Source: Eledone cirrhosa
Lineage: Eukaryota
Reading direction: 5' to 3'
Length of the DNA stretch: 64,000 nt
Assembly (NCBI GenBank): GCA_964016885.1
Contig: OZ024753.1
Location: 33,976,001 to 34,040,000 of the forward strand
Part shown: one piece after another, positions 2,076 to 58,627 of the stretch
How the letters are laid out: each line of letters opens with the position of its first letter
How positions within the stretch are numbered: the first letter of the stretch is position 1
Translations under genes and position numbers: made by a program
The notes under the pieces: generated by a model
The model's input: only the letters and a program-made list of their open reading frames with translations
Told to the model about the DNA's origin: nothing
Database searches by the model: none

Positions 2076-2154
<79 letters not shown>

Positions 2155-2169
2155 TTATATATGTATATA

Positions 2170-2202
<33 letters not shown>

Positions 2203-2205
<3 letters not shown>

Positions 2206-2395
2206 GGAACGAGTAGGACCCCGACGGCTGAGCTCAAGCCGTTTCGACGGCTAATTCTGGACCAGAATTAGCCGTCGAAACGGCTTGAGCTCAGCCGTCG
2301 GGGTCCTACTCGTTCCTATTACCCACTCTACTACCCTAAGTATTGAGTACTTTGGTGCGTTATGGTCCACCTGGTTCCTTACCACATTTCCTTCG

Positions 2396-2398
<3 letters not shown>
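2203..2398 (+). mobile_element. Fold-back (palindromic) mini-element in (TA)n, copy A
   Basis: Perfect 58-bp arms 2203-2260 / 2262-2319 plus an ~80-bp unique tail. Same family at 19525, 25543, 28395, 56349, 58491. Confidence 0.9.
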
Positions 2399-2432
<34 letters not shown>

Positions 2433-2831
2433 TACATATATACACATACACATATATATACACATATATACACATACACACATATATACATATACACATA
2501 TATATATACACACATATATACATATATGTGTACATATATACACATATCTACATATATACACACACATATCTACACATATACACATACACACAGATATACA
2601 CATAAACACATATACATATATATATATAAAGAATAACATTAAGAAAGATACTGGGATTGGATAAAGATACTTGATTACATTCATTATAATTATTTCTATG
2701 GGGCTAACCTTATGCAATCCAAGATGTAGTATGTACATGTGTTGCTGGGATAGGAAAGATTTCTTCAGATGAACATTCGTTTATGTGATGCTGCAGGCAA
2801 ACACATGTTATTTTTCTTGCGTGATAGACAA

Positions 2832-9774: not shown

Positions 9775-10170
9775 AATGGCTTCTGGTGTAGGTACAAGAC
9801 CAACAATTTTGAGGGAGGAAAGTCAGGTAAATCGACTCCAGAGCGTTACTGTTACAAAGCTAACCTCGGCTTGATTTCAACTCAGCACGTAAAGGGACGT
9901 AACTAGATGCCGTATATCATATTGTCCGACGCTCTACCGATACTGCTAATGCACCGCCCTAAGTAATGGTTCTGATTGAGGCACAAGGTCAACAATTCGG
10001 GAGTGGAACGTCGATTAAATCAACCCCAGTGCATTACTGATACTTTATCTAATCGACCTCGTAAGAATGACAGTCAAAGCTAACCTCGGCGTGATTTGAA
10101 ATGAGAACGTAGAAGGACGTAACTATAAGCCACAAAGTATGTTGTCCGACGCTCTACCGATACTGCCAAA
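9775..10170 (-). mobile_element. Two tandem tRNA-derived SINE copies
   Basis: Reverse complements of family A-box (ggcagtatcggtagagcgtcggac) and core motifs, each present twice. Confidence 0.75.
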
Positions 10171-10217
10171 TGATGATGATGATGATGATGATAATAATAA
10201 TAATAATAATAATAATA

Positions 10218-10827
10218 ATTGTATCCGAGTGTAAACACCTAGCCCAGACTCACTATAAAGGCTGGAGACATGATGTGATAGGCAGGTTGATCCACTGGCA
10301 TCTATGCAAAGTAAACAATTTACCACATTCTGAGAAGTACTATGAGCATAAGCCAGAGTCGGTGATAGAAAATGATCAGGTGAAGATGCTATGGGATTTT
10401 AGGATACAGACGGACAAGAAATTAGAACACAATAGGCCTGACCTGGTGGTTTGGGACAAGGAAAAAAGATCGTGCCTGATTGTAATGTAGTCTGCCCATT
10501 TGACACGAGAGTGCAAGAAAAGGAGAGGGAGAAAATTAACCGATACCAGGATTTAAAGTGGGAGTTAAAAATGATTTAGAAATTCCATGAAATCAAGGTC
10601 GTCCTGATTGTCATAGGCGCACTGGGTACTATCTCAAAGAGTTTCTAAGAATGGTTAAAGAAGATTAGTCCAGCCCCGCTTTTTGGAACACTTCAAAAGG
10701 CATGCTTGCTGGGAACAACAAGAACCCTCCGATACATCCTGAATGTCTAAGGCTGCAGGTAGTGGCTTGATATTCATTTCAACAAACCTTCCAATTAAAT
10801 AACATCAATGACTGAGACTCAAAGAAC
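10218..10827 (+). mobile_element. 5'-truncated R4/Dong-type non-LTR retrotransposon (restriction-like endonuclease C-terminus, pseudogenised)
   Basis: Peptide C…YKGWRHDVIGRLIHWHLC…LWDFRIQTD…HNRPDLVV, then after a frameshift CPFD…EKINRYQDL…IVIGALG…LQKACLLGT (RHD and PD-D RLE motifs). (TAA)n on both sides. Confidence 0.85.
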
Positions 10828-11035: not shown

Positions 11036-11638
11036 ATAATAATAATAATGTTTGTATAAAATCTGTGAAAGCGTAGAGTGTATCATATCAGACGTTTCTA
11101 GAACTATTTGATGGATGGCTAGATTGTCACTTAGCTCCTGAAGGAATCGCAGACACGCCGCATTAACCTTGGACGTTTCTAAAGCACTCTCATTCTCTCT
11201 TTATCTCTCTCCCTGACAACTTAACCCTTACATTATATCATATTATATTATATACTATATCTTATTATAATATAATATAAGATTCAATCAATTTTGATAA
11301 GTTCACACTTGTCAGACAGTTCGGTCTCTATTTCTTCAGATATGTTGTTAGTTTTAGCAAAGTCTTTATGAACCAGACTTAATGAGGTTTTTCAGTTGTC
11401 AAGATCTCTGTGACAGACACACTAGAAGCTTCTTCAATCTACTTCAATGATGACGGCATACGGTTTCCGTAGAATAATATTTAATAATCTCTTCAGCACC
11501 GCAACTCTTTTATAATTCAATTTAAAGGATTGAAAATGTTTGTTAAGAGTATTTAATATTTGACGATATGCAAACCTTGTGCGTGTGTCACTATATATAT
11601 ATATGGGGGGGGGGGGGATAAACAACATAAGATGATTA

Positions 11639-11698
11639 TTTCATTTACCAGTGGTTTCTTGAAAGCAAATAAATCTGCTTTCAGTCGTCAGAATGAAA
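11639..11698 (-). ncRNA. Type I hammerhead ribozyme motif
   Basis: Reverse complement of 11809-11868 with one mismatch at the base of stem II. Confidence 0.8.
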
Positions 11699-11808
11699 AA
11701 TTCCTGGTGCTTTTATTGAATGTGGATTTGAAAAACAAAAATATTAGAAATATGACAGCGAGGCTGAAGGAAGAATAAAATACACATTCAATAAAAACAC
11801 CAGGAACT

Positions 11809-11868
11809 TTTCATTCTGACGACTGAAAGCAGATTTATTTGCTTTCAGGAAACCACTGGTAAATGAAA
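11809..11868 (+). ncRNA. Type I hammerhead ribozyme motif (intact core)
   Basis: UUUCAUU-CUGACGA-CUGAAAGCA(gauuuauu)UGCUUUCAG-GAAACC(acu)GGUA|AAUGAAA: 7-bp stem I, 9-bp stem II, GUA triplet. Confidence 0.88.
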
Positions 11869-12323
11869 TAATCATCTTATGTTGTTTATTACATAAATAA
11901 GCTCTGTAACCTACATAGAGCACTCTTTTTTCCTGGACCTTTCCGACGGAATTACTTCATATATATATATATATATATAAGAATGAATGAATGAATGAAT
12001 GAATGAATGAGTGAGTGAGTGAATGAGTGAGTGAGTGAGTGAGTGAGTGAGAGATGATATATATATATATTGCGTTAATAACATGTGGAAAGAATTCTTG
12101 ATTTGAATGTCGAAATCATTGTTTTTCCTTTTGTGGTGTTCATGTCATCATTGATGTCATCATCATTATGACCATAGTCATTACCATTATACTCACCAAC
12201 ATTAGCATAATCATCACCATCATCATCATAATAGTCATCATTACCCTCATTAACATCATCATCTGCATTATCATCATGATTCAATGAATATTGAACTCAA
12301 GATACCCGTGTATCTTGAGGTCT

Positions 12324-12389: not shown

Positions 12390-12464
<75 letters not shown>

Positions 12465-12466
<2 letters not shown>

Positions 12467-12510
12467 CAGGACTAGAACTGTTTCATTCAAAAGAATTCAT
12501 CAGGAAAGGG
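12465..12510 (-). ncRNA. Hammerhead motif ending at the cleavage site
   Basis: CUGAUGA-AUUC(uuuu)GAAU-GAAACAG(uucuaguc)CUGUC immediately followed by (AU)n. The 3' strand of stem I is absent. Confidence 0.75.
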
Positions 12511-16246: not shown

Positions 16247-16684
16247 TGGTGGCTGCCAACTCGTTTTCGAGTACGGACACTACTTTATATCCATGTAGGA
16301 GAACCCCTACCGATGCGCTGAACGAGTGTGACTTTTTAGTCCAGCCAGCGACTTGAAAACTCTGGTACAAACACTACACTTGTGACAATTACTGACACAT
16401 AGTGCTGGACCCATGGTACCATGTGACGACAAGTGCAGAGAGATCTCCAGATATAAAGCAATGCCTGTGCCGTGAAGCTTTTATAGTGAGCAAAGGCACT
16501 GCACAAAGCCAGTCCCACTCTCTTAACCAAGATGATATTTACCAAAAAGAATAACAAGTCAACATCATTGGATACCATCAGGGTTGCAGGTGTTATATCA
16601 GAGTTTTCCTTCTCCTAGAATTCTGCCTTGACAAAGGCTAAGGGGTCATCTCTCCCGGTGATTTTGGATGGCCATTGACTCTTA
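16247..16684 (-). mobile_element. 5'-truncated copy of a ~610-bp non-autonomous retroelement (RTE-5'UTR-like)
   Basis: Near-identical to the first ~437 bp (+ strand) of 20354-20962 and 22282-22890. Embedded in (TA/CATA)n. Confidence 0.8.
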
Positions 16685-19524: not shown

Positions 19525-19527
<3 letters not shown>

Positions 19528-19719
19528 CGAAGGAAATGTGGTAAGGAACCAGGTGGACCATAACGCACCAAAGTAGTCAATACTTAGGGTAGTAGAGTGG
19601 GTAATAGGAACAAGTAAGACCCCGACGGCTGAGCTCAAGCCGTTTCGACGGCTAATTCTGGACTCCAGAATTAGCCGTCGAAACGGCTTGAGCTCAGCCG
19701 TCGGGGTCTTACTTGTTCC

Positions 19720-19722
<3 letters not shown>
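19525..19722 (-). mobile_element. Fold-back mini-element, copy B
   Basis: Perfect palindrome 19604-19722 plus tail. (TA)n on both sides. Confidence 0.9.
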
Positions 19723-19761
<39 letters not shown>

Positions 19762-20113
19762 AATATATACTAACTGTTATAGATACATATATATGTGTGT
19801 GTAAATCATGCAAGTAGGCCTAGGTCGTGGTTTGTAATGTTCCGGTCATTGATAAACATGTGTGTACATTAGTTATTCATGAGTAAATCTAAGCGAAAGT
19901 ACATTACAATGGTATAATGTTTCATTAATACATTGTTCGCTATTATTACTTCAATATATCAGTATTCATCTTTTGTCCTTTACTTGAAGCTTTTGCTTTG
20001 CAATGACTTCAGAGATCACTTCTCAAATGCAATCAAACGTTTGCATTCATGACAGTACACTTTCTCCCTCTCTCGTCATGCAATACACAGATACACTCGT
20101 AAGCACACACACA

Positions 20114-20353: not shown

Positions 20354-20962
20354 TGGTGGCTGCCAACTCGTTTTCGAGTACGGCCACTACTTTATATCCA
20401 TGTAGGAGAACCCCTACCGATGCGCTGAACGAATGTGACTTTTTAGTCCAGCCAGCGACTTGAAAACTCTGGTACAAAGACTACACTTGTGACCATTATT
20501 GACACATAGTGCAGGGCCCATGGTACCATGTGATGACAAGTGCAGAGAGATCTCCAGATATAAAGCAATGCCTGTGCTGTGAAGCTTTTATAGTGAGCAA
20601 AGGCACTGCACAAAGCCAGTCCCACTCTCTTAACCAAGATGATATTTACCAAAAAGAAGAACAAGTCAACATCATTGGATACCATCAGGGTTGCAGGTGT
20701 TATATCAGAGTTTTCCTTCTCCTAGAATTCTGCCTTAACAAAGGCTAAGGGGTCATCTCTCCCGGTGATTTTGGATGGCTATTGACTCTTAAAAGCTCCC
20801 TTGCCCTTTGACAGGTTTTGTTTTTAGTCCTGCAGGATGTCCAAAGTCACCCTCCTCACCAAGAAACCTTGGTGGGGTTGCCAGTTTAGTCGCCAACGAC
20901 CCGACCATGAGACAGGTTGTACTGGGATACATGTTACCAGTAGCACCAACTGGTGACCTGAC
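20354..20962 (-). mobile_element. Full ~610-bp non-autonomous retroelement (RTE-5'UTR-like, candidate HDV-like ribozyme remnant)
   Basis: Three copies in the window. Minus strand contains ggtcgttggcgactaaactggcaacc and ctaggagaaggaaaactctga, motifs I associate with RTE 5' UTRs. Confidence 0.7.
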
Positions 20963-22281
20963 ATATACATACATACATACACATATACATACATATATAC
21001 ATACATACATACATACACATATACATACATACATACATATATACATACATACATACATACACATATACATACATATATACATACATACATATATATATAC
21101 ATACATATACACATACATACATATACACATACATACATATACACATACATACATACACATATACATACATACATACATACATATACATACACACATACAT
21201 ACATATACATACATACATACACATACACATACATACATACATACATATACATACATACATATACATACATACACATATACATACATACATATATACATAT
21301 ACATACATACATACATATACATACATACATACATACATACATACACATACATACATATATATACATACATACACATACATATACATACATACATACATAC
21401 ATATACATACATATATATATACATACACATACATACATATACATATACATACATATATATATATACATACATACACATACATATACACATACATACATAC
21501 ATACATATATACATACATACATATATACATACATACATATATATATACATACATACATACACATATACATACATACATACACATATACATACATATACAT
21601 ACATATACACATACATACATATACATACATATACATATACATACATATACATACATATACATATACATACATACACATACATACACACACATACATATAC
21701 ATATATATATATATAAATATACATACATATACATACATATACATATACATACACATACATACATATACACATACATACACATACATACATATACATATAC
21801 ATACATATACACACATATACATACATATACACATACATACATATACATACATATACATACATATACATATATATATACATACATATACATATATACACAT
21901 ATACATACATATACATACATATACATACATATACATATACACATACATACATATACATACATATACACACATACACATATACATGCATATACATATATAT
22001 ATATACATACATATACATACATATACATATATACACATATACATACATATACATACATATACATACACACACATATACACATACATACATATACATACAT
22101 ATACACATACACACATACATACATATACATACACATACATATATATATATACATACATATACATACATATACATATATATATATACATACATATACATAC
22201 ATATACATACATATACATATACATACACATACATATATATACATATACATACATATACATATATATATATATACATACATA
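20963..22281. repeat. 1.3-kb (CATA/CATATA)n compound microsatellite
   Basis: Direct inspection. Confidence 0.95.
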
Positions 22282-22890
22282 TGGTGGCTGCCAACTCGTT
22301 TTCGAGTACGGCCACTACTTTATATCCATGTAGGAGAACCCCTACCGATACGCTGAACGAGTGTGACTTTTGAGTCCAGCCAGCGACTTGAAAACTCTGG
22401 TACAAACACTACACTTGTGACAATTATTGACACATAGTGCTGGGCCCATGGTACCATGTGACGACAAGTGCAGAGAGATCTCCAGATACAAAGCAATGCC
22501 TGTGCCATGAAGCTTTTATAGTGAGCAAAGGCACTGCACAAAGCCAGTCCCACTCTCTTAACCAAGATGATATTTACCAAAAAGAAGAACAAGTCAACAT
22601 CATTGGATACCATCAGGGTTGCAGGTGTTATATCAGAGTTTTCCTTCTCCTAGAATTCTGCCTTGACAAAGGCTAAGGGGTCATCTCTCCCGGTGATTTT
22701 GGATGGCCATTGACTCTTAAGAGCTCCTTTGCCCTTTGACAGGTTTTGTTTTTAGTCCTGCAGGATGTCCAAAGTCACCCTCCTCACCAAGAAAACTTGG
22801 TGGGGTTGCCAGTTTAGTCGCCAACGACCCGACCATGAAACAGGTTGTACTGGGATACATGTTACCAGTAGCACCAACTGGTGACCTGAC
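22282..22890 (-). mobile_element. Second full copy of the ~610-bp element
   Basis: Highly similar to 20354-20962. Confidence 0.8.
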
Positions 22891-22922
22891 ATATATATAT
22901 ATATACATATATATATATACAC

Positions 22923-24326: not shown

Positions 24327-25010
24327 CTATCCAGGACCCCGACAGCTGAGCTCCGGCCGTTTCGACAGCTACATCCAAACTCCCAAGTGTTATATATATA
24401 TATATATATATATATATACTCATAACTTTACGAGAGCGTGTTATGTGCGTTCACCATATAAACCGCAACAATATAAACAGCAGTAATAACTGCAGTAAGC
24501 ACAGCCGTGGTAGAAGTAAAGAAGTCACCGCTGCCACAGCGACGCGACAATAGCAGCAGAAGCAGTAGCTGTAATATAGCACGCAGGCTATTGTTTTGGG
24601 GCGAAAATGGTTTCACTGATTTTCTATGAATGACTTTCTTGGAAATATGAATGTCTTTTGGAAACCTGAAAAGAGAAGGGAGGAAATAATATTTATACAT
24701 GTACTTGAACACGTATACTTTTGTGAGGAAATGTTTGGTCTTATTGGAGGTATTTGTCCAACATTTCCTGAATGTGGTGATTTTGTTTCAGTCCAATGCA
24801 AACTAAAGATCACACAGTTCAATAAGATGCACATGAATAAGATGGATAATAAACAAGTCCAATAGAAAAAGTGTTTCTTGAATGAAATATATAAACATAC
24901 AAGCACAAAAAAATTCAGACTCACACACACACATACCTATATATCTGTGTGTGTATGTGTATGTGTGCATATTTAAATACACATGCGTACGTACATCATA
25001 TATATGTATA

Positions 25011-25542: not shown

Positions 25543-25739
25543 ATAGGAACGAGTAGGACCCCGACGGCTGAGCTCAAGCCGTTTCGACGGCTAATTCTGA
25601 ATCCAGAATTAGCCATCGAAACGGCTTGAGCTCAGCCGTCGGGGTCCTACTCGTTCCTATTACCCACTCTACTACCCTAAGTATTGAGTACTTTGGTGCG
25701 TTATGGTCCACCTGGTTCCTTACCACATTTCCTTCGTTA
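25543..25739 (+). mobile_element. Fold-back mini-element, copy C
   Basis: Near-perfect palindrome 25543-25660 plus tail identical in type to copy A. Confidence 0.9.
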
Positions 25740-26843: not shown

Positions 26844-26894
26844 GGCTTCTACAGGACTAGAACTGTTTCACTCGGAAGAAATCATCAGGAAGCC
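26844..26894 (-). ncRNA. Type I hammerhead ribozyme motif (complete)
   Basis: GGCUUC-CUGAUGA-uUUC(uucc)GAGu-GAAACAG(uucuaguc)CUGUA|GAAGCC: 6-bp stem I, 4-bp stem III. Confidence 0.85.
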
Positions 26895-26960
26895 GACTGT
26901 CCAAGTAATGTGGTAAATACTCAGTAATATGATACATACCTCCATATTAATTGGACAGTC

Positions 26961-27003
26961 GGTTTCCTGATGATTTCTCCCGAATGAAACAGTTCTAGTC
27001 CTG
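26961..27003 (+). ncRNA. Inverted partner hammerhead, truncated just before the cleavage site
   Basis: ggtttc-CTGATGA-tttctcccgaat-GAAACagttctagtcctg, then unrelated sequence. Confidence 0.7.
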
Positions 27004-28183: not shown

Positions 28184-28224
28184 CCGAGAAGAATTGTTTC
28201 ACCTTATGCGGATCTTCAGCTCGG
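28184..28224 (-). ncRNA. Degenerate minimal hammerhead motif (a more decayed one faces the other way at 28228-28262)
   Basis: CCGAG-CUGAAGA-uCC(gcauaa)GGu-GAAAC-AAUU-cUU|CUCGG. Stem I is perfect and G16.2 is replaced by C. Confidence 0.6.
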
Positions 28225-28394
28225 ACTCCGAACTGAAGATCTGGAGAAGTAGAGACGAATATTCTATATGACCTAATAGTTGGCTCCAAGACAGAAAACT
28301 TGAATTAATTATGATGAAAAATTTGTATCCATATATATGCATACACAGATACACATATATACATATATATATATAAATATATATATATATACAT

Positions 28395-28524
28395 ATAGGA
28401 ACATTTTCAAGACCCCGACGGCAGAGCTCAAACCGTTTCGACGGCTATTTCTGGACTGTTTAGTCCAGAAATAGCCATCGAAACGGCTTTAAATCTGTAC
28501 TTCCTTACCACACTTCCTTCGTTA
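28395..28524 (+). mobile_element. Fold-back mini-element, diverged and internally deleted copy F
   Basis: gacggctatttctggact/agtccagaaatagccatc arms plus …ttccttcgtta tail. Confidence 0.75.
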
Positions 28525-34184: not shown

Positions 34185-35646
34185 TTATGAGTTGCGATTT
34201 AGATTTTTGAATGGGCGGATAGCACGGGGCCCAAGCCTTGGATGTATCTTGAAGGCGATGCCAACATCATTTGGGCAGTGATGATGGAACATTTTCCACA
34301 TCATGCAGATAATATAACGCTCACGGCGACGTTGGAGTGAGTAAAGTTTCAGGTTTTCTAATCGACCCCAGTAGTCAAGGTCTGACATGGCATCTATCTT
34401 TTTCGTGATTGCCCTTTGAGGAGCTTCAAGTTTCATGATACTTTGTTTCGTGTGGGGAGACCACAGTGGACAACAGTATTCAAGGTGTGGTCGGGCAAAA
34501 GTAGAGAAGAGAAGGATAATGGTGCGGGAATCTCTCGACTGGAAGGTTCTGAGGATCCAGGAACACATTCTGCGGGCCATGTCAACTTTGCTGCTTATAT
34601 GCGTGGTCCAGCTTATGTTGCTGTCCACGGTTACTCCCAAGTCTCTGATGTTGTTAGATGCCACGAGAGTTTCCCCGGAGGGAAGGGAGTACGGGAGTTT
34701 CAGAGCATCCTCTTTTCCAAAGTGGATCAGTTCGAATTTGTCTTCGTTCAGTAACATGTTGTTCTTTTCTGCCATTGGGTAACAGCCAGTAGGTCTGACT
34801 GAAGGCTTATCCGGTCATCCACGCCATTGATGACCTTTTGGAGCTTGGAATCATCAGCGAAAATTTTAATGTTGCTGTGTTTGATGATGTCAGTGATGTC
34901 ATTAATATAGATGATGAAGAGAAGTGGGCCCAACACAGTGCCTTGTGGGACCCCACTACTGACTTTGGCTGGGCTTGATTTGACTCCCTCAACTACAACA
35001 TGTTGGGTTCTGTTTGACAGGAAGCTCTTGATCCACTGCAGCAGCTTTCCAGTGACACCAATATTGGACAGCTTTCTCAGTAGAATGTTATGATCAACCC
35101 TGTCAAAGGCCTTGCTGAAATCAAGGTAGATAACATCAGTGTTGGAACCCTCTCCCAAGGCTCTCAAAATGTCATCAAAGTGATGCAGTAGCTGCGTCAA
35201 GCAATCCCTTCCATTACGGAATCCATGCTGGTTGGAGTTCAGCATATTGTTACTCTCAAGGAAGTGGGTCATTCGCGATCTCACCACTCTCTCAAATACC
35301 TTAATGATATGAGAGGTGAGTGAGATTGGACGGTAATTCACGGCAAGGGATTTGTTTCCCTTTTTGAAAACTGGGACAACAGACTGGGATAGAAGGTTTT
35401 CTGGCACATATCCAGCATCCAGTGAGTTCCGCCACAGATTGGCAAGAGGAGATGCAAGTTGGTGTTGACACGCCTTCAAGACACAAGCAGGGAACCTATC
35501 GGGACCTACTGCTGAATTATGCTTGATTTCCTTTATTGCCGCCAAGACATCAGGGGCGCCAAACGTTATGTCCGATAAGGTGTAATGGGGAGTAACATCG
35601 CCGATACAGCCCAGATCGGCCATATCAGGATTGCTGAAAACAGAGC
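34185..35646 (-). pseudogene. LINE reverse transcriptase ORF, split by frameshift near 34770
   Basis: ORFs 34748-35623 and 34185-34775 are consecutive parts of one RT. Confidence 0.9.
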
Positions 35647-35662
35647 AGTATTGTTTCTGCAG

Positions 35663-35844
35663 CGGTGGATTGGCACTATCGGTAGAGGGTCGGACGCCAT
35701 GCTTTCAAGCATAGTTACGTCCCTTTACGATCTGAGTTCAAATCCCGCCGAGGTTGACTTTGCCTTTCATCCTTACGGGGTCGATAAAATAAAGTACCAG
35801 TAATGCACTGGGTAATTGCTGGCCTTGTGCCTAAAGTAGAAACA
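35663..35844 (+). mobile_element. tRNA-derived SINE inserted in the LINE, with 16-bp TSD
   Basis: agtattgtttctgcag at 35647-35662 and 35845-35860. A/B boxes present. Confidence 0.95.
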
Positions 35845-36205
35845 AGTATTGTTTCTGCAGTATCTCACCCATGGTTTTAGCATTGTCTTGAAGAGTGCCA
35901 TTTTCATCAATTAGAGGGCCAACAGTAGAGCCAGTGATTTTGTGTTTTTTTGCAAATGAAAAGAACACTTTGGGATTGAGTTTGATCTTCTCAATGGCCC
36001 AGGCCTCTTCAGCTCTTCTCTGATTGTTGATGAGGGACATTATGTTGTTTTGGAGGTTATGTTTTTTAATCTCTAGTGATGAAATGGCAGTCAAGTTGAT
36101 GTGTTGCTGCTGACAGTATTTCAGCTTGTTGATTTTTTTGTTCGTTCTCTTAATTTTTCTGATGAGCGTTTTTCTATTTCTAGGGATTCTGCTCTTAGAT
36201 TTGAT

Positions 36206-36960
36206 GTACATATATACATATGTACATATAAACATATGTACATATATACATATGTACATATAAACATATGTACATATAAACATATGTACATATATACATA
36301 TGTACATATATACATATGTACATATATACATATGTACATATATACATATGTACATATATACATATGTACATATATACATATGTACATATATACATATGTA
36401 CATATATACATATGTACATATGTATATATGTACATATATACATATGTACATATAAACATATGTACATATATACATATGTACATATAAACATATGTACATA
36501 TATACATATGTACATATAAACATATGTACATATATACATATGTACATATAAACATATGTACATATATACATATGCACATATATACATATGTACATATATA
36601 CATATGTACATATATACATATGTACATATATACATATGTACATATATACATATGTACATATATACATATGTACATATAAACATATGTACATATATACATA
36701 TGTACATATATACATATGTACATATATACATATGTACATATATACATATGTACATATATACATATGTACATATATACATATGTACATATATACATATGTA
36801 TATATATACATATGTACATATATACATATGTATATATATACATATGTACATATAAACATATGTACATATATACATATGTACATATATACATATATACATA
36901 TGTACATATGTACATATGTACATATATACATATGTACATATATACATATGTACATATACA
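36206..36960. repeat. 16-bp minisatellite, right part
   Basis: Same unit and orientation as 33520-33881. Confidence 0.95.
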
Positions 36961-46949: not shown

Positions 46950-47873
46950 TTCTTCCTAGATATAATGATAATCAAAAACGACACCACCATTACCACGGAT
47001 ATATATTATAAACACACAGACACGCATCAATATCTGAATTTTAAGTCGTGCCATCCACCTCATACAAAACGCAACATCCCATACTGCCTAGTCAGAAGAA
47101 TTTGTACCATTGTAGAAGATACGAATACCAGGTACAAACGCCTAACAGAACTAAGAGAATTTTTGCTCAAACAAAAATACCCATCTCTACTTATAGAAAA
47201 TGGCATACAGCGGGCTATAAAAATACCTATACAACAACTTAGGACAACCCAAGGAAGAAGAAACCAAGAACTGGTCATACCATTTATAATGACACACAAC
47301 CCATGTCACCAGAATATCTTCAACACTGCCAAAGCAAACCTACCGATCATTGCTCAAAGTAATGAATTAAAAGGCTTAATCACAGATCGATCTTTGACTC
47401 TTAGTAAAAGACAGCCAAAAAATTTGAAGCAATTACTAACAAAAGCAAAGTTTGCCCTTAACAACAAAGACCAATCATTCACTGTATCTAAATGCAATGA
47501 TAGTCCATGCGGAACATGTCAATCCATACACGCCGGTCAATATATGAAAGCAAAAACTGGAAAAATACTCCCAAATGCAAATATGAACTGCAAAAGCAGA
47601 AATCTAATTTACTGCATTAAATGCCCGAATTGTGAAGAACTATATGTCGGTCAAACTGGAAATGCACTATCGGAACGTGCACGAGTACACCGTCAGCAAA
47701 TCAGAGACCCAAATGTCCGTCAGATACCCCTAAGTAACCATCTAGCAACATGTGGTCAGGGAATATTTATAATATTCCCATTCTACAAATTACACAGCCC
47801 AAGTGAAATCAAGAGAAAAATCAAAGAAAAGAATTTTATTGATAAATTCAAACCCAAGCTAAATGAACAATAA
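46950..47873 (+). CDS. Penelope-like RT C-terminus/thumb + GIY-YIG endonuclease (N-terminally truncated, open frame)
   Basis: FLD…[28 protein letters not shown] (PLE RT7/thumb), CxxxxCxxC linker, [20 protein letters not shown]…R…H…E…LN (GIY-YIG). The upstream part of the track ORF is only microsatellite. Confidence 0.92.
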
Positions 47874-56348: not shown

Positions 56349-56521
56349 GTAAGGAGCCAGGTGGACCATAACGCATCAAAGTACTCAATACTTAGGGTAG
56401 TAGAGTGGGTAATAGGAACCACTAAGACCCCGACGGCTGAGCTCAAGCCGTTTCGACGGCTAATTCTGGACTAATTAGCCGTCGAAACGGCTTGAGCTCA
56501 GCCGTCGGGGTCTTACTGGTT

Positions 56522-56526
<5 letters not shown>
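56349..56526 (-). mobile_element. Fold-back mini-element, copy D
   Basis: Palindrome 56412-56526 plus tail. Confidence 0.88.
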
Positions 56527-58490: not shown

Positions 58491-58627
58491 TAACGAAGGA
58501 AATGTGGTAAGGAGCCAGATGAACCATAACGCACCAAAGTATCAATACTTAGGGTAGTAGAGTGGGTAATAGGAACAAGTAGGACCCCGACGGCTGAACT
58601 CAAGCCGGTTCGACGGCTAATTCTGAA
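58491..58627 (-). mobile_element. Fold-back family copy E lacking the inverted arm
   Basis: Tail plus one arm, ending at taattctga. Confidence 0.85.

Follow-up and report, generated by a model that had tools for sequence, protein, structure and literature searches.

The fold-back element and its relatives

The window (the whole stretch of 64,000 nt of Eledone cirrhosa DNA that was analyzed) contains, at positions 2203 to 2398, a fold-back element, here called copy A, in which two 58-nt arms (2203-2260 and 2262-2319) match perfectly around a center of 1 nt and are followed on one side by a tail of 79 nt, with (TA)n on both flanks. The perfect 58-bp fold-back that an earlier note on this DNA had described is thus real. 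Its folding energy is -132 kcal/mol (z -18.6), a stability that 0 of 200 shuffles reach, and a 23-mer of the arm has 11 matches within the window, compared to 0 in 100 shuffles. The features of copy A and of its relatives are listed below; signed positions are numbered from the A (+1) of the TCAGT/TTAGT motif in the parent element.

2078..2205, no strand: (TA)n target, left of copy A
2203..2260, minus strand: inverted, tail-less arm of copy A, ending at an internal TAT site (+59 to +61)
2261..2261, no strand: head-to-head junction of copy A, in hammerhead loop II (entry C13 33978251)
2262..2319, plus strand: direct arm of copy A, with the end of loop II, the 3' strand of stem II, GAAA, stem III, GUC, and the 3' strand of stem I
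2277-2280, plus strand: GAAA in the direct arm of copy A
2297-2299, plus strand: GUC triplet in the direct arm of copy A
2317-2319, plus strand: internal TAT in the direct arm of copy A
2320..2398, plus strand: one-sided 79-nt tail of copy A, ending at a second TAT site (+139 to +141)
2397..2628, no strand: (TA)n-rich target, right of copy A
19525..19722, minus strand: copy B, fold-back with tail
24333..24371, minus strand: copy G, diverged lone arm without tail
25543..25739, plus strand: copy C, fold-back with tail
28395..28524, plus strand: copy F, older lineage with an internal deletion
56349..56526, minus strand: copy D, fold-back with a shortened tail
58491..58625, minus strand: copy E, arm and tail without inverted arm

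At the junction of copy A, the tail arm begins at +4 and the other arm extends to +2, with an overlap of 1 nt. Copies B, D, E, and F lie where the earlier note had placed them, including the missing inverted arm of copy E, but copy C and the fragment G had been overlooked. Perfect arms hold for copy A but are the exception overall, since copy D is perfect over just 43 bp and the arms are identical over 45 nt in only 13 of 61 main-lineage pairs.

An assembly artifact was rejected because the arms differ by point changes, the flanking DNA is unique, and neither end varies from contig to contig. In three runs of unrecorded type, the element was covered by contigs, and none of the pieces listed spans the whole hairpin. 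Among the matches listed by an Rfam search of the window (150 of 391), nothing was found but microsatellite-driven miRNA matches.

The parent element and its hammerhead

A 34-mer taken from the arm matches the animal's own 3.0-Gb genome exactly at 19,973 places, many of them in opposite-strand pairs about 50 to 6,000 nt apart. Longer copies extend upstream into the half of a type I hammerhead that is absent from copy A, and a pattern for this missing half gave 901 matches in the same genome. Moving upstream from the hammerhead region of these parents, about 1.2 kb of untranslated DNA is followed by a 710-aa frame containing the FDI, MG..D.AE, and YRDD motifs and a C-terminal YIG motif. The frame was compared by eye with the motif list published for the Hydra clade of Penelope-like elements (PLEs), which names RWK, DKT, a CxCx5C linker, and CxxC and CxH around conserved E and N, with no CCHH (PMC8557442, cited throughout from its accessible part). 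In particular, we could read RWR, DKT, CNCPDRSIC, CNLC, and CKH, with RWR standing where the list gives RWK.

In the atlas, the look-alikes of the parent protein (0.96 to 0.99) include members labeled GIY-YIG, RVT_1, or HTH_animal, and the protein itself had no match in Pfam or NCBIfam and obtained no name from a PDB sequence search; its single-sequence structure model has a pLDDT of 32.6, too low for use. Furthermore, the features of EN+ PLEs are present, namely, a frame with RT and then GIY-YIG motifs, partial tandems, an inverted 5'-truncated copy, and a one-sided tail, together with insertion in (TA)n, which is a trait of the Hydra clade. The partial tandems (pseudo-LTRs) occur at three loci (L051, L052, and L053), where the unit measures 3.55 kb and a 5' copy is present in inverted orientation, and in these tandem parents the tail continues into the leader and the reading frame. 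On these sequence grounds, the 58-bp fold-back represents the minimal form of a Hydra-clade PLE, 3.55 kb long, whose target is (TA)n, and the hairpin of copy A is almost certainly a 5'-truncated insertion of this element. The earlier note had not identified the element as a PLE in truncated form; the inverted copy and the tail have both been published for PLEs.

The longer parent that the earlier note had asked for was found, with a complete hammerhead, but the core is not the one that it had expected: among 71 full hammerhead regions, UUGANAA occurs in 62 and CUGAGAA in 7, with 2 unparsed, and CUGANGA was scored in none. The type I parts (core, GAAA, NUH triplet, and stems I to III) are all present in the parents, and all 18 imposed pairs are Watson-Crick, so that the parents appear to hold a complete hammerhead with a U3-A8 core, a variant known from the PLEs of Schistosoma (PMC4209133, in its accessible part). 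The hammerhead fold of a parent, at -20.3 kcal/mol, lies about 5 kcal/mol above the minimum of -25.5 kcal/mol, which corresponds to a competing hairpin adjoining the loop II site; loop II itself, of 37 to 39 nt, is largely unpaired in the folds. No Rfam match at the gathering score was obtained in five parent loci. The stub is probably inert because it is devoid of TATA-like box, ribozyme core, and reading frame.

Other repeats in the window

A second head-to-head inverted element occurs near (TA)n at 26852-27003, with 84% identity over about 150 nt and a relative at 12442-12507. Each of its arms presents a CUGAUGAU...UGAAAC motif that resembles the listed Hydra hammerheads, and the element is likely to represent another PLE family. 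A 5'-truncated Penelope-type fragment with an RT end and GIY-YIG (46950-47873; Pfam E value, 1.2e-6) adjoins a TA-rich array and belongs to a different family from the fold-back element. Imperfect inverted elements were also noticed beside TA runs at 11618-11889 (82% over 287 nt) and 28187-28265 (73% over 79 nt), and another repeat, 97% identical among 20712-20971, 22640-22900, and 16605-16684, ends at TA/AC microsatellites. The minus-strand fragments at 34185-36200, presumably of a LINE-type reverse transcriptase, are interrupted by a 16-bp minisatellite at 36204-36957, and we take the frame at 10113-10490 to resemble the restriction-like endonuclease end of a site-specific LINE.

The population of arms and its fixed ends

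The proportions given here rest on 1.80 Mb of fetched DNA, in which 282 arms were recognized (71 long, 209 short, and 2 at edges) with a search anchor spanning +13 to +46, so that arms cut further 3' escape detection. Stretches of 37 Mb in contig C1 and 0.55 Mb in contig C13 supplied most of the pairs, and many pairs were selected by an exact match in one arm; the pair counts exclude 56 unpaired short arms, and 7 long arms are also unpaired, one of which has an adjacent tail-only piece. The matches of the arm are unevenly distributed, with 25 in the 264 kb around the window versus 17 in 550 kb made up of eleven blind blocks elsewhere.

Most of the paired insertions are fold-back stubs of 196 nt. 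Exactly one tail is present in 76 of the 77 short head-to-head pairs, and an inverted copy with the tail at one end was found in 24 of the 25 long-long insertions that were paired automatically. Considering the 105 short and long pairs together, the start of the TA repeats lies at +59 for 83 of the tail-less arms and at +139 for 81 of the tail arms. In the tandem parents both stop sites are TAT, like the (TA)n target, which is in keeping with the twin priming on TAT microhomology that had been proposed in the earlier note. The insertions range in length from the stub to several kilobases, with their ends unchanged. Moreover, since those that had not been chosen for length comprise 75 short-short, 10 long-long, and 1 intermediate pairs and 0 long-short ones, both arms of an insertion seem to use the same kind of template.

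In six long pairs (L036, L045, L046, L058, L065, and L069), the tail-less arm ends 38 to 64 nt upstream of +1, within the 5' half of the hammerhead, which could be a second stop zone. A distinct arrangement was observed at L049:4448-5170 (G000:C1:27009447-27010169), where a fold-back stub is followed by two 257-nt tandem units with identical junctions, each running from -4 through the tail into the start of the reading frame; this suggests a small circular template, repeated jumps, or a later duplication.

Junctions and kinship of the arms

The 77 short pairs present 64 distinct junctions, of which 35 are overlapping, 11 are blunt, and 31 contain filler, and in 9 of the pairs the center has no loop at all. 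The commonest junction leaves an 8-nt loop, and in 27 pairs, as well as in several kilobase-long ones, the tail-less arm is the longer of the two.

The variants that the earlier note had considered specific to single copies turned out to be subfamily haplotypes shared by many, the five commonest being found in 83, 48, 41, 17, and 10 of the 282 arms. An 11-nt haplotype is identical within 48 of the 77 pairs, compared to 12.6 on average and at most 22 in 5000 shuffles, and the pairs that could be typed to a major haplotype are concordant in 46 of 48 cases and discordant in 2. Among 16 long pairs, mostly chosen from the 901 matches to the missing hammerhead half, 31 of the 32 arms have their partner as nearest neighbor, and of 66 doubleton variants 52 are confined to one insertion; the corresponding figure for the short pairs is 1 of 19, on 45 sites and probably through homoplasy. 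Left arms do not group with left arms, the outcome that would have spoken against the reading of the earlier note. The diversity of junctions and the pairing of arms within insertions indicate that the palindrome was likely formed anew at each insertion, which was one of the options offered there.

Against this background, a MITE or an inherited palindromic SINE was rejected because the pairs do not share a fixed master junction. A related possibility is that a few palindromic master stubs are copied in a SINE- or MITE-like manner, arms and junction being inherited together. Certain junctions do recur two to four times, and short pairs are far more numerous than long ones, as such copying would predict; however, the 64 junctions in 77 pairs, the occurrence of the same junction alongside different haplotypes and with the tail at one side or the other, and the sharing of the same ends by insertions from the stub to several kilobases leave this explanation with a very low probability.

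The main rival to two separate primings is a self-priming fold-back, in which a single pass of reverse transcription produces a 3' end that snaps back and copies itself, a process that has been proposed for an antisense template in the rotifer Adineta vaga (PMC3846280, in its accessible part). The overlapping bases at 35 of the 77 junctions, the 8-nt loop of the commonest one, and the arms being mutual nearest relatives are all compatible with it. However, a cDNA primed from the internal site would have no tail to copy, which is at odds with the longer tail-less arms, and neither the 9 zero-loop centers nor the 31 filler junctions are expected. Furthermore, two pairs have arms from different subfamilies, and the mirror arm ends at the same +59 site whatever its length. 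The longer tail-less arms, loopless centers, fillers, and discordant pairs thus argue for two separate primings, and we hold self-priming to be unlikely. The variant proposed in the earlier note, a snap-back at the stem II hairpin, is not supported by the same junctions, and the turn-around point lies not at stem II itself but inside loop II.

Divergence of the arms after insertion

At non-CpG sites, the two arms of an insertion differ at 36 of 1272 positions (2.8%), versus a private rate of 44 in 3598 (1.2%) in the tail. Since the difference between the arms is about twice the private rate of the unpartnered tail, the arms age independently after insertion, which argues against ongoing conversion. 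Tail divergence and arm divergence showed no significant rank correlation (rho 0.19, p 0.13).

The variants common to both long arms include sense T>C in 16 of 47 cases and A>G in 2, whereas those found in a single arm of the long pairs include T>C in 15 of 146 and A>G in 10 (Fisher p 0.0004 for T>C, shared versus single). Gene conversion within the hairpin, which the earlier note had offered as a way of keeping the arms alike after insertion, would fit young copies such as copy A, whose arms are perfect; however, the arms differ as much as expected in its absence, and the different spectra of shared and single-arm variants speak against it as well, so that we consider it largely refuted, with hardly any probability left.

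The shared T>C variants correspond to A>G on an antisense RNA and could therefore be counted in favor of self-priming. However, the same bias is present in variants common to different insertions (T>C in 29 and A>G in 6 of 167) and thus marks the history of the lineage. We read the variants shared by long arms as probable inheritance from the source copy, although one copying pass would give the same result. Editing of the sense RNA from A to I found no support, with the 2 shared A>G variants out of 47 and no clear neighbor pattern at the 16 T>C sites. In the long arms L031 to L070, the lineage variants are biased on the sense strand toward pyrimidine transitions, with T>C counted 29 times and A>G 6 times, and C>T 45 times and G>A 11 times, which is a possible error signature of the replication of the element.

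A putative RNA start in loop II

The starts of the paired short arms fall within -6 to +8, in loop II, in 139 of 154 cases, and few lie between -7 and -33. They are spread over about 15 nt rather than concentrated on one base, and overlaps inflate the peak at -4. A TATA-like octamer occurs at -29 to -32 in most long arms, and the +1 site presumably corresponds to the initiator consensus. Moreover, among the 70 short arms that extend to +1, 17 have a G at -1, which is present in 0 of 71 parents, and this G accounts for 17 of the 21 non-parent bases at this position. In other retroelements, it is established that the cap can be copied as an additional G. Among the 17 cases, 7 are explicable by the partner arm and 1 belongs to an unpaired arm; of the other 9, 1 fits an internal repeat on inspection.

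Judging from motif likeness and junction bases, it is likely that the RNA starts in loop II; a similar pair of TATA and initiator-like motifs has been described in the Penelope repeat of A. vaga (PMC3846280). A full-length copy starting at +1 was not seen, the three full tandems having been chosen for two complete cores. A splice acceptor (YAG at -1 to +2) was rejected, as the AG is kept in 70 of 209 short arms and a common upstream exon was not found.

It could be argued that priming occurs at two ends but that the pile-up in loop II reflects a stall of the enzyme, or a break, at an RNA structure instead of the RNA 5' end. The minimum-energy fold does place a competing hairpin beside the site, and the six long pairs with one arm ending 38 to 64 nt upstream of +1 indicate that structure may stop the enzyme. 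However, loop II is largely unpaired in the folds, and a stall accounts neither for the G added at -1 and the fillers made of T runs nor for the motifs resembling an initiator and a TATA box, and it leaves unexplained why the arms are both short or both long; we judge it to be quite improbable.

Proposed mechanism

It is possible to hypothesize, with a moderate degree of probability, that an insertion results from two primings, one per cut (TA)n end, at the TAT sites of RNA from one source, and that the cDNAs run off where the capped RNA starts, in loop II, and are then joined. The RNA would begin at the initiator-like A in loop II of the upstream repeat, and since it starts there, only the downstream half of the ribozyme would be present at its 5' end. 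The protein of the element would cleave the (TA)n target on both strands, and the resulting DNA ends would each anneal to one of the two UAU sites, which lie 80 nt apart on the RNA. The reverse transcripts would then run off the capped start after about 60 and 140 nt, with the cap sometimes copied as an extra G, or with stuttering at run-off, and the two cDNA ends would be joined as blunt ends, through short overlaps, or with filler between them. The same route would give long insertions when the RNA is a read-through or tandem one and its downstream repeat serves as the start.

A more tentative reading, to which we give somewhat less than an even chance, goes further and takes the stubs as the strong-stop products of a PLE. 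A dimeric enzyme would copy the capped 5' end of a single RNA twice, once for each end of the double-strand cut, and the run-off cDNAs would be joined; the promoter inside loop II would halve the 5' ribozyme, and the 3' ribozyme could cleave, leaving a short terminal repeat.

In LINE-1 twin priming, both cut ends prime on the RNA and an inversion results, and in retroviruses reverse transcription from a site near the 5' end of the RNA runs off the capped end to give strong-stop DNA. Different from LINE-1, where two different parts of the RNA are copied, the Eledone stubs contain the same part twice, and different from the retroviral case, neither a tRNA primer nor an integrase is involved.

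Comparison with known elements

The Eledone element shares with the Hydra clade the single frame with RW-R/K, DKT, CxCx5C, CxxC, and CxH, the (TA)n target, a 3' hammerhead with a bulged stem II, the partial tandems, and the one-sided tail (PMC8557442), and with the Hydra family Penelope-13_HM the inverted 5'-truncated copy (PMC8557442, supplement). However, its unit is 3.55 kb long, compared to generally under 3 kb in the clade, its tail is 79 nt long, compared to 30 to 40, and the U3-A8 core and the 37- to 39-nt loop II are unlike those of the listed Hydra hammerheads (PMC8557442). The dominance of 196-nt fold-back stubs among the paired insertions is a further difference.

The Penelope of A. 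vaga presents the same head-to-head inverted repeat, with palindromes at the junctions and an optional tail, but in few copies, for which self-priming on an antisense template was proposed (PMC3846280). In Eledone, by contrast, there are tens of thousands of arms, and the junctions favor two primings on the sense RNA. For Poseidon of the green anole, in vitro work has described cutting and extension of both strands of an AT-rich target, two internal start sites that bound the tail, and a product that is shortened by 5' truncation of the RNA (PMC11167929, in its accessible part). The anole start sites are reported there to be nonhomologous to the cut DNA, whereas both Eledone sites are TAT, like the target, and joined inverted products, found in Eledone, are absent from that part of the anole description.

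A type I hammerhead is also found within the repeats of PLEs and in retrozymes, and opposite-strand pairs 100 to 700 bp apart are known from Schistosoma (PMC4209133; bioRxiv 10.64898/2026.07.22.740005, both in their accessible parts). However, the Eledone stubs are not retrozymes, because they lack the core and, unlike non-LTR retrozymes, do not form tandem arrays of complete ribozymes; the 257-nt tandem of L049 is also devoid of the core.

Thus, the type of element, the inverted copy, the tail, the target, and the core variant are already known. In the literature covered, which is incomplete, we found no account of a dominant class of short run-off products ending at a likely transcription start within a ribozyme. 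The origin of the tandem and inverted structures of PLEs has been named as an open task (PMC8557442), and Eledone offers for it young minimal insertions by the thousand. Their junctions can tell the models apart and are in line with the chemistry of two strands and two starts that the anole PLE shows in vitro (PMC11167929). Moreover, the near-perfect 58-bp hairpins scattered through the genome are a possible source of double-stranded RNA. If the strong-stop reading is true, thousands of copies would preserve a record of where transcription starts and of every step in PLE integration.
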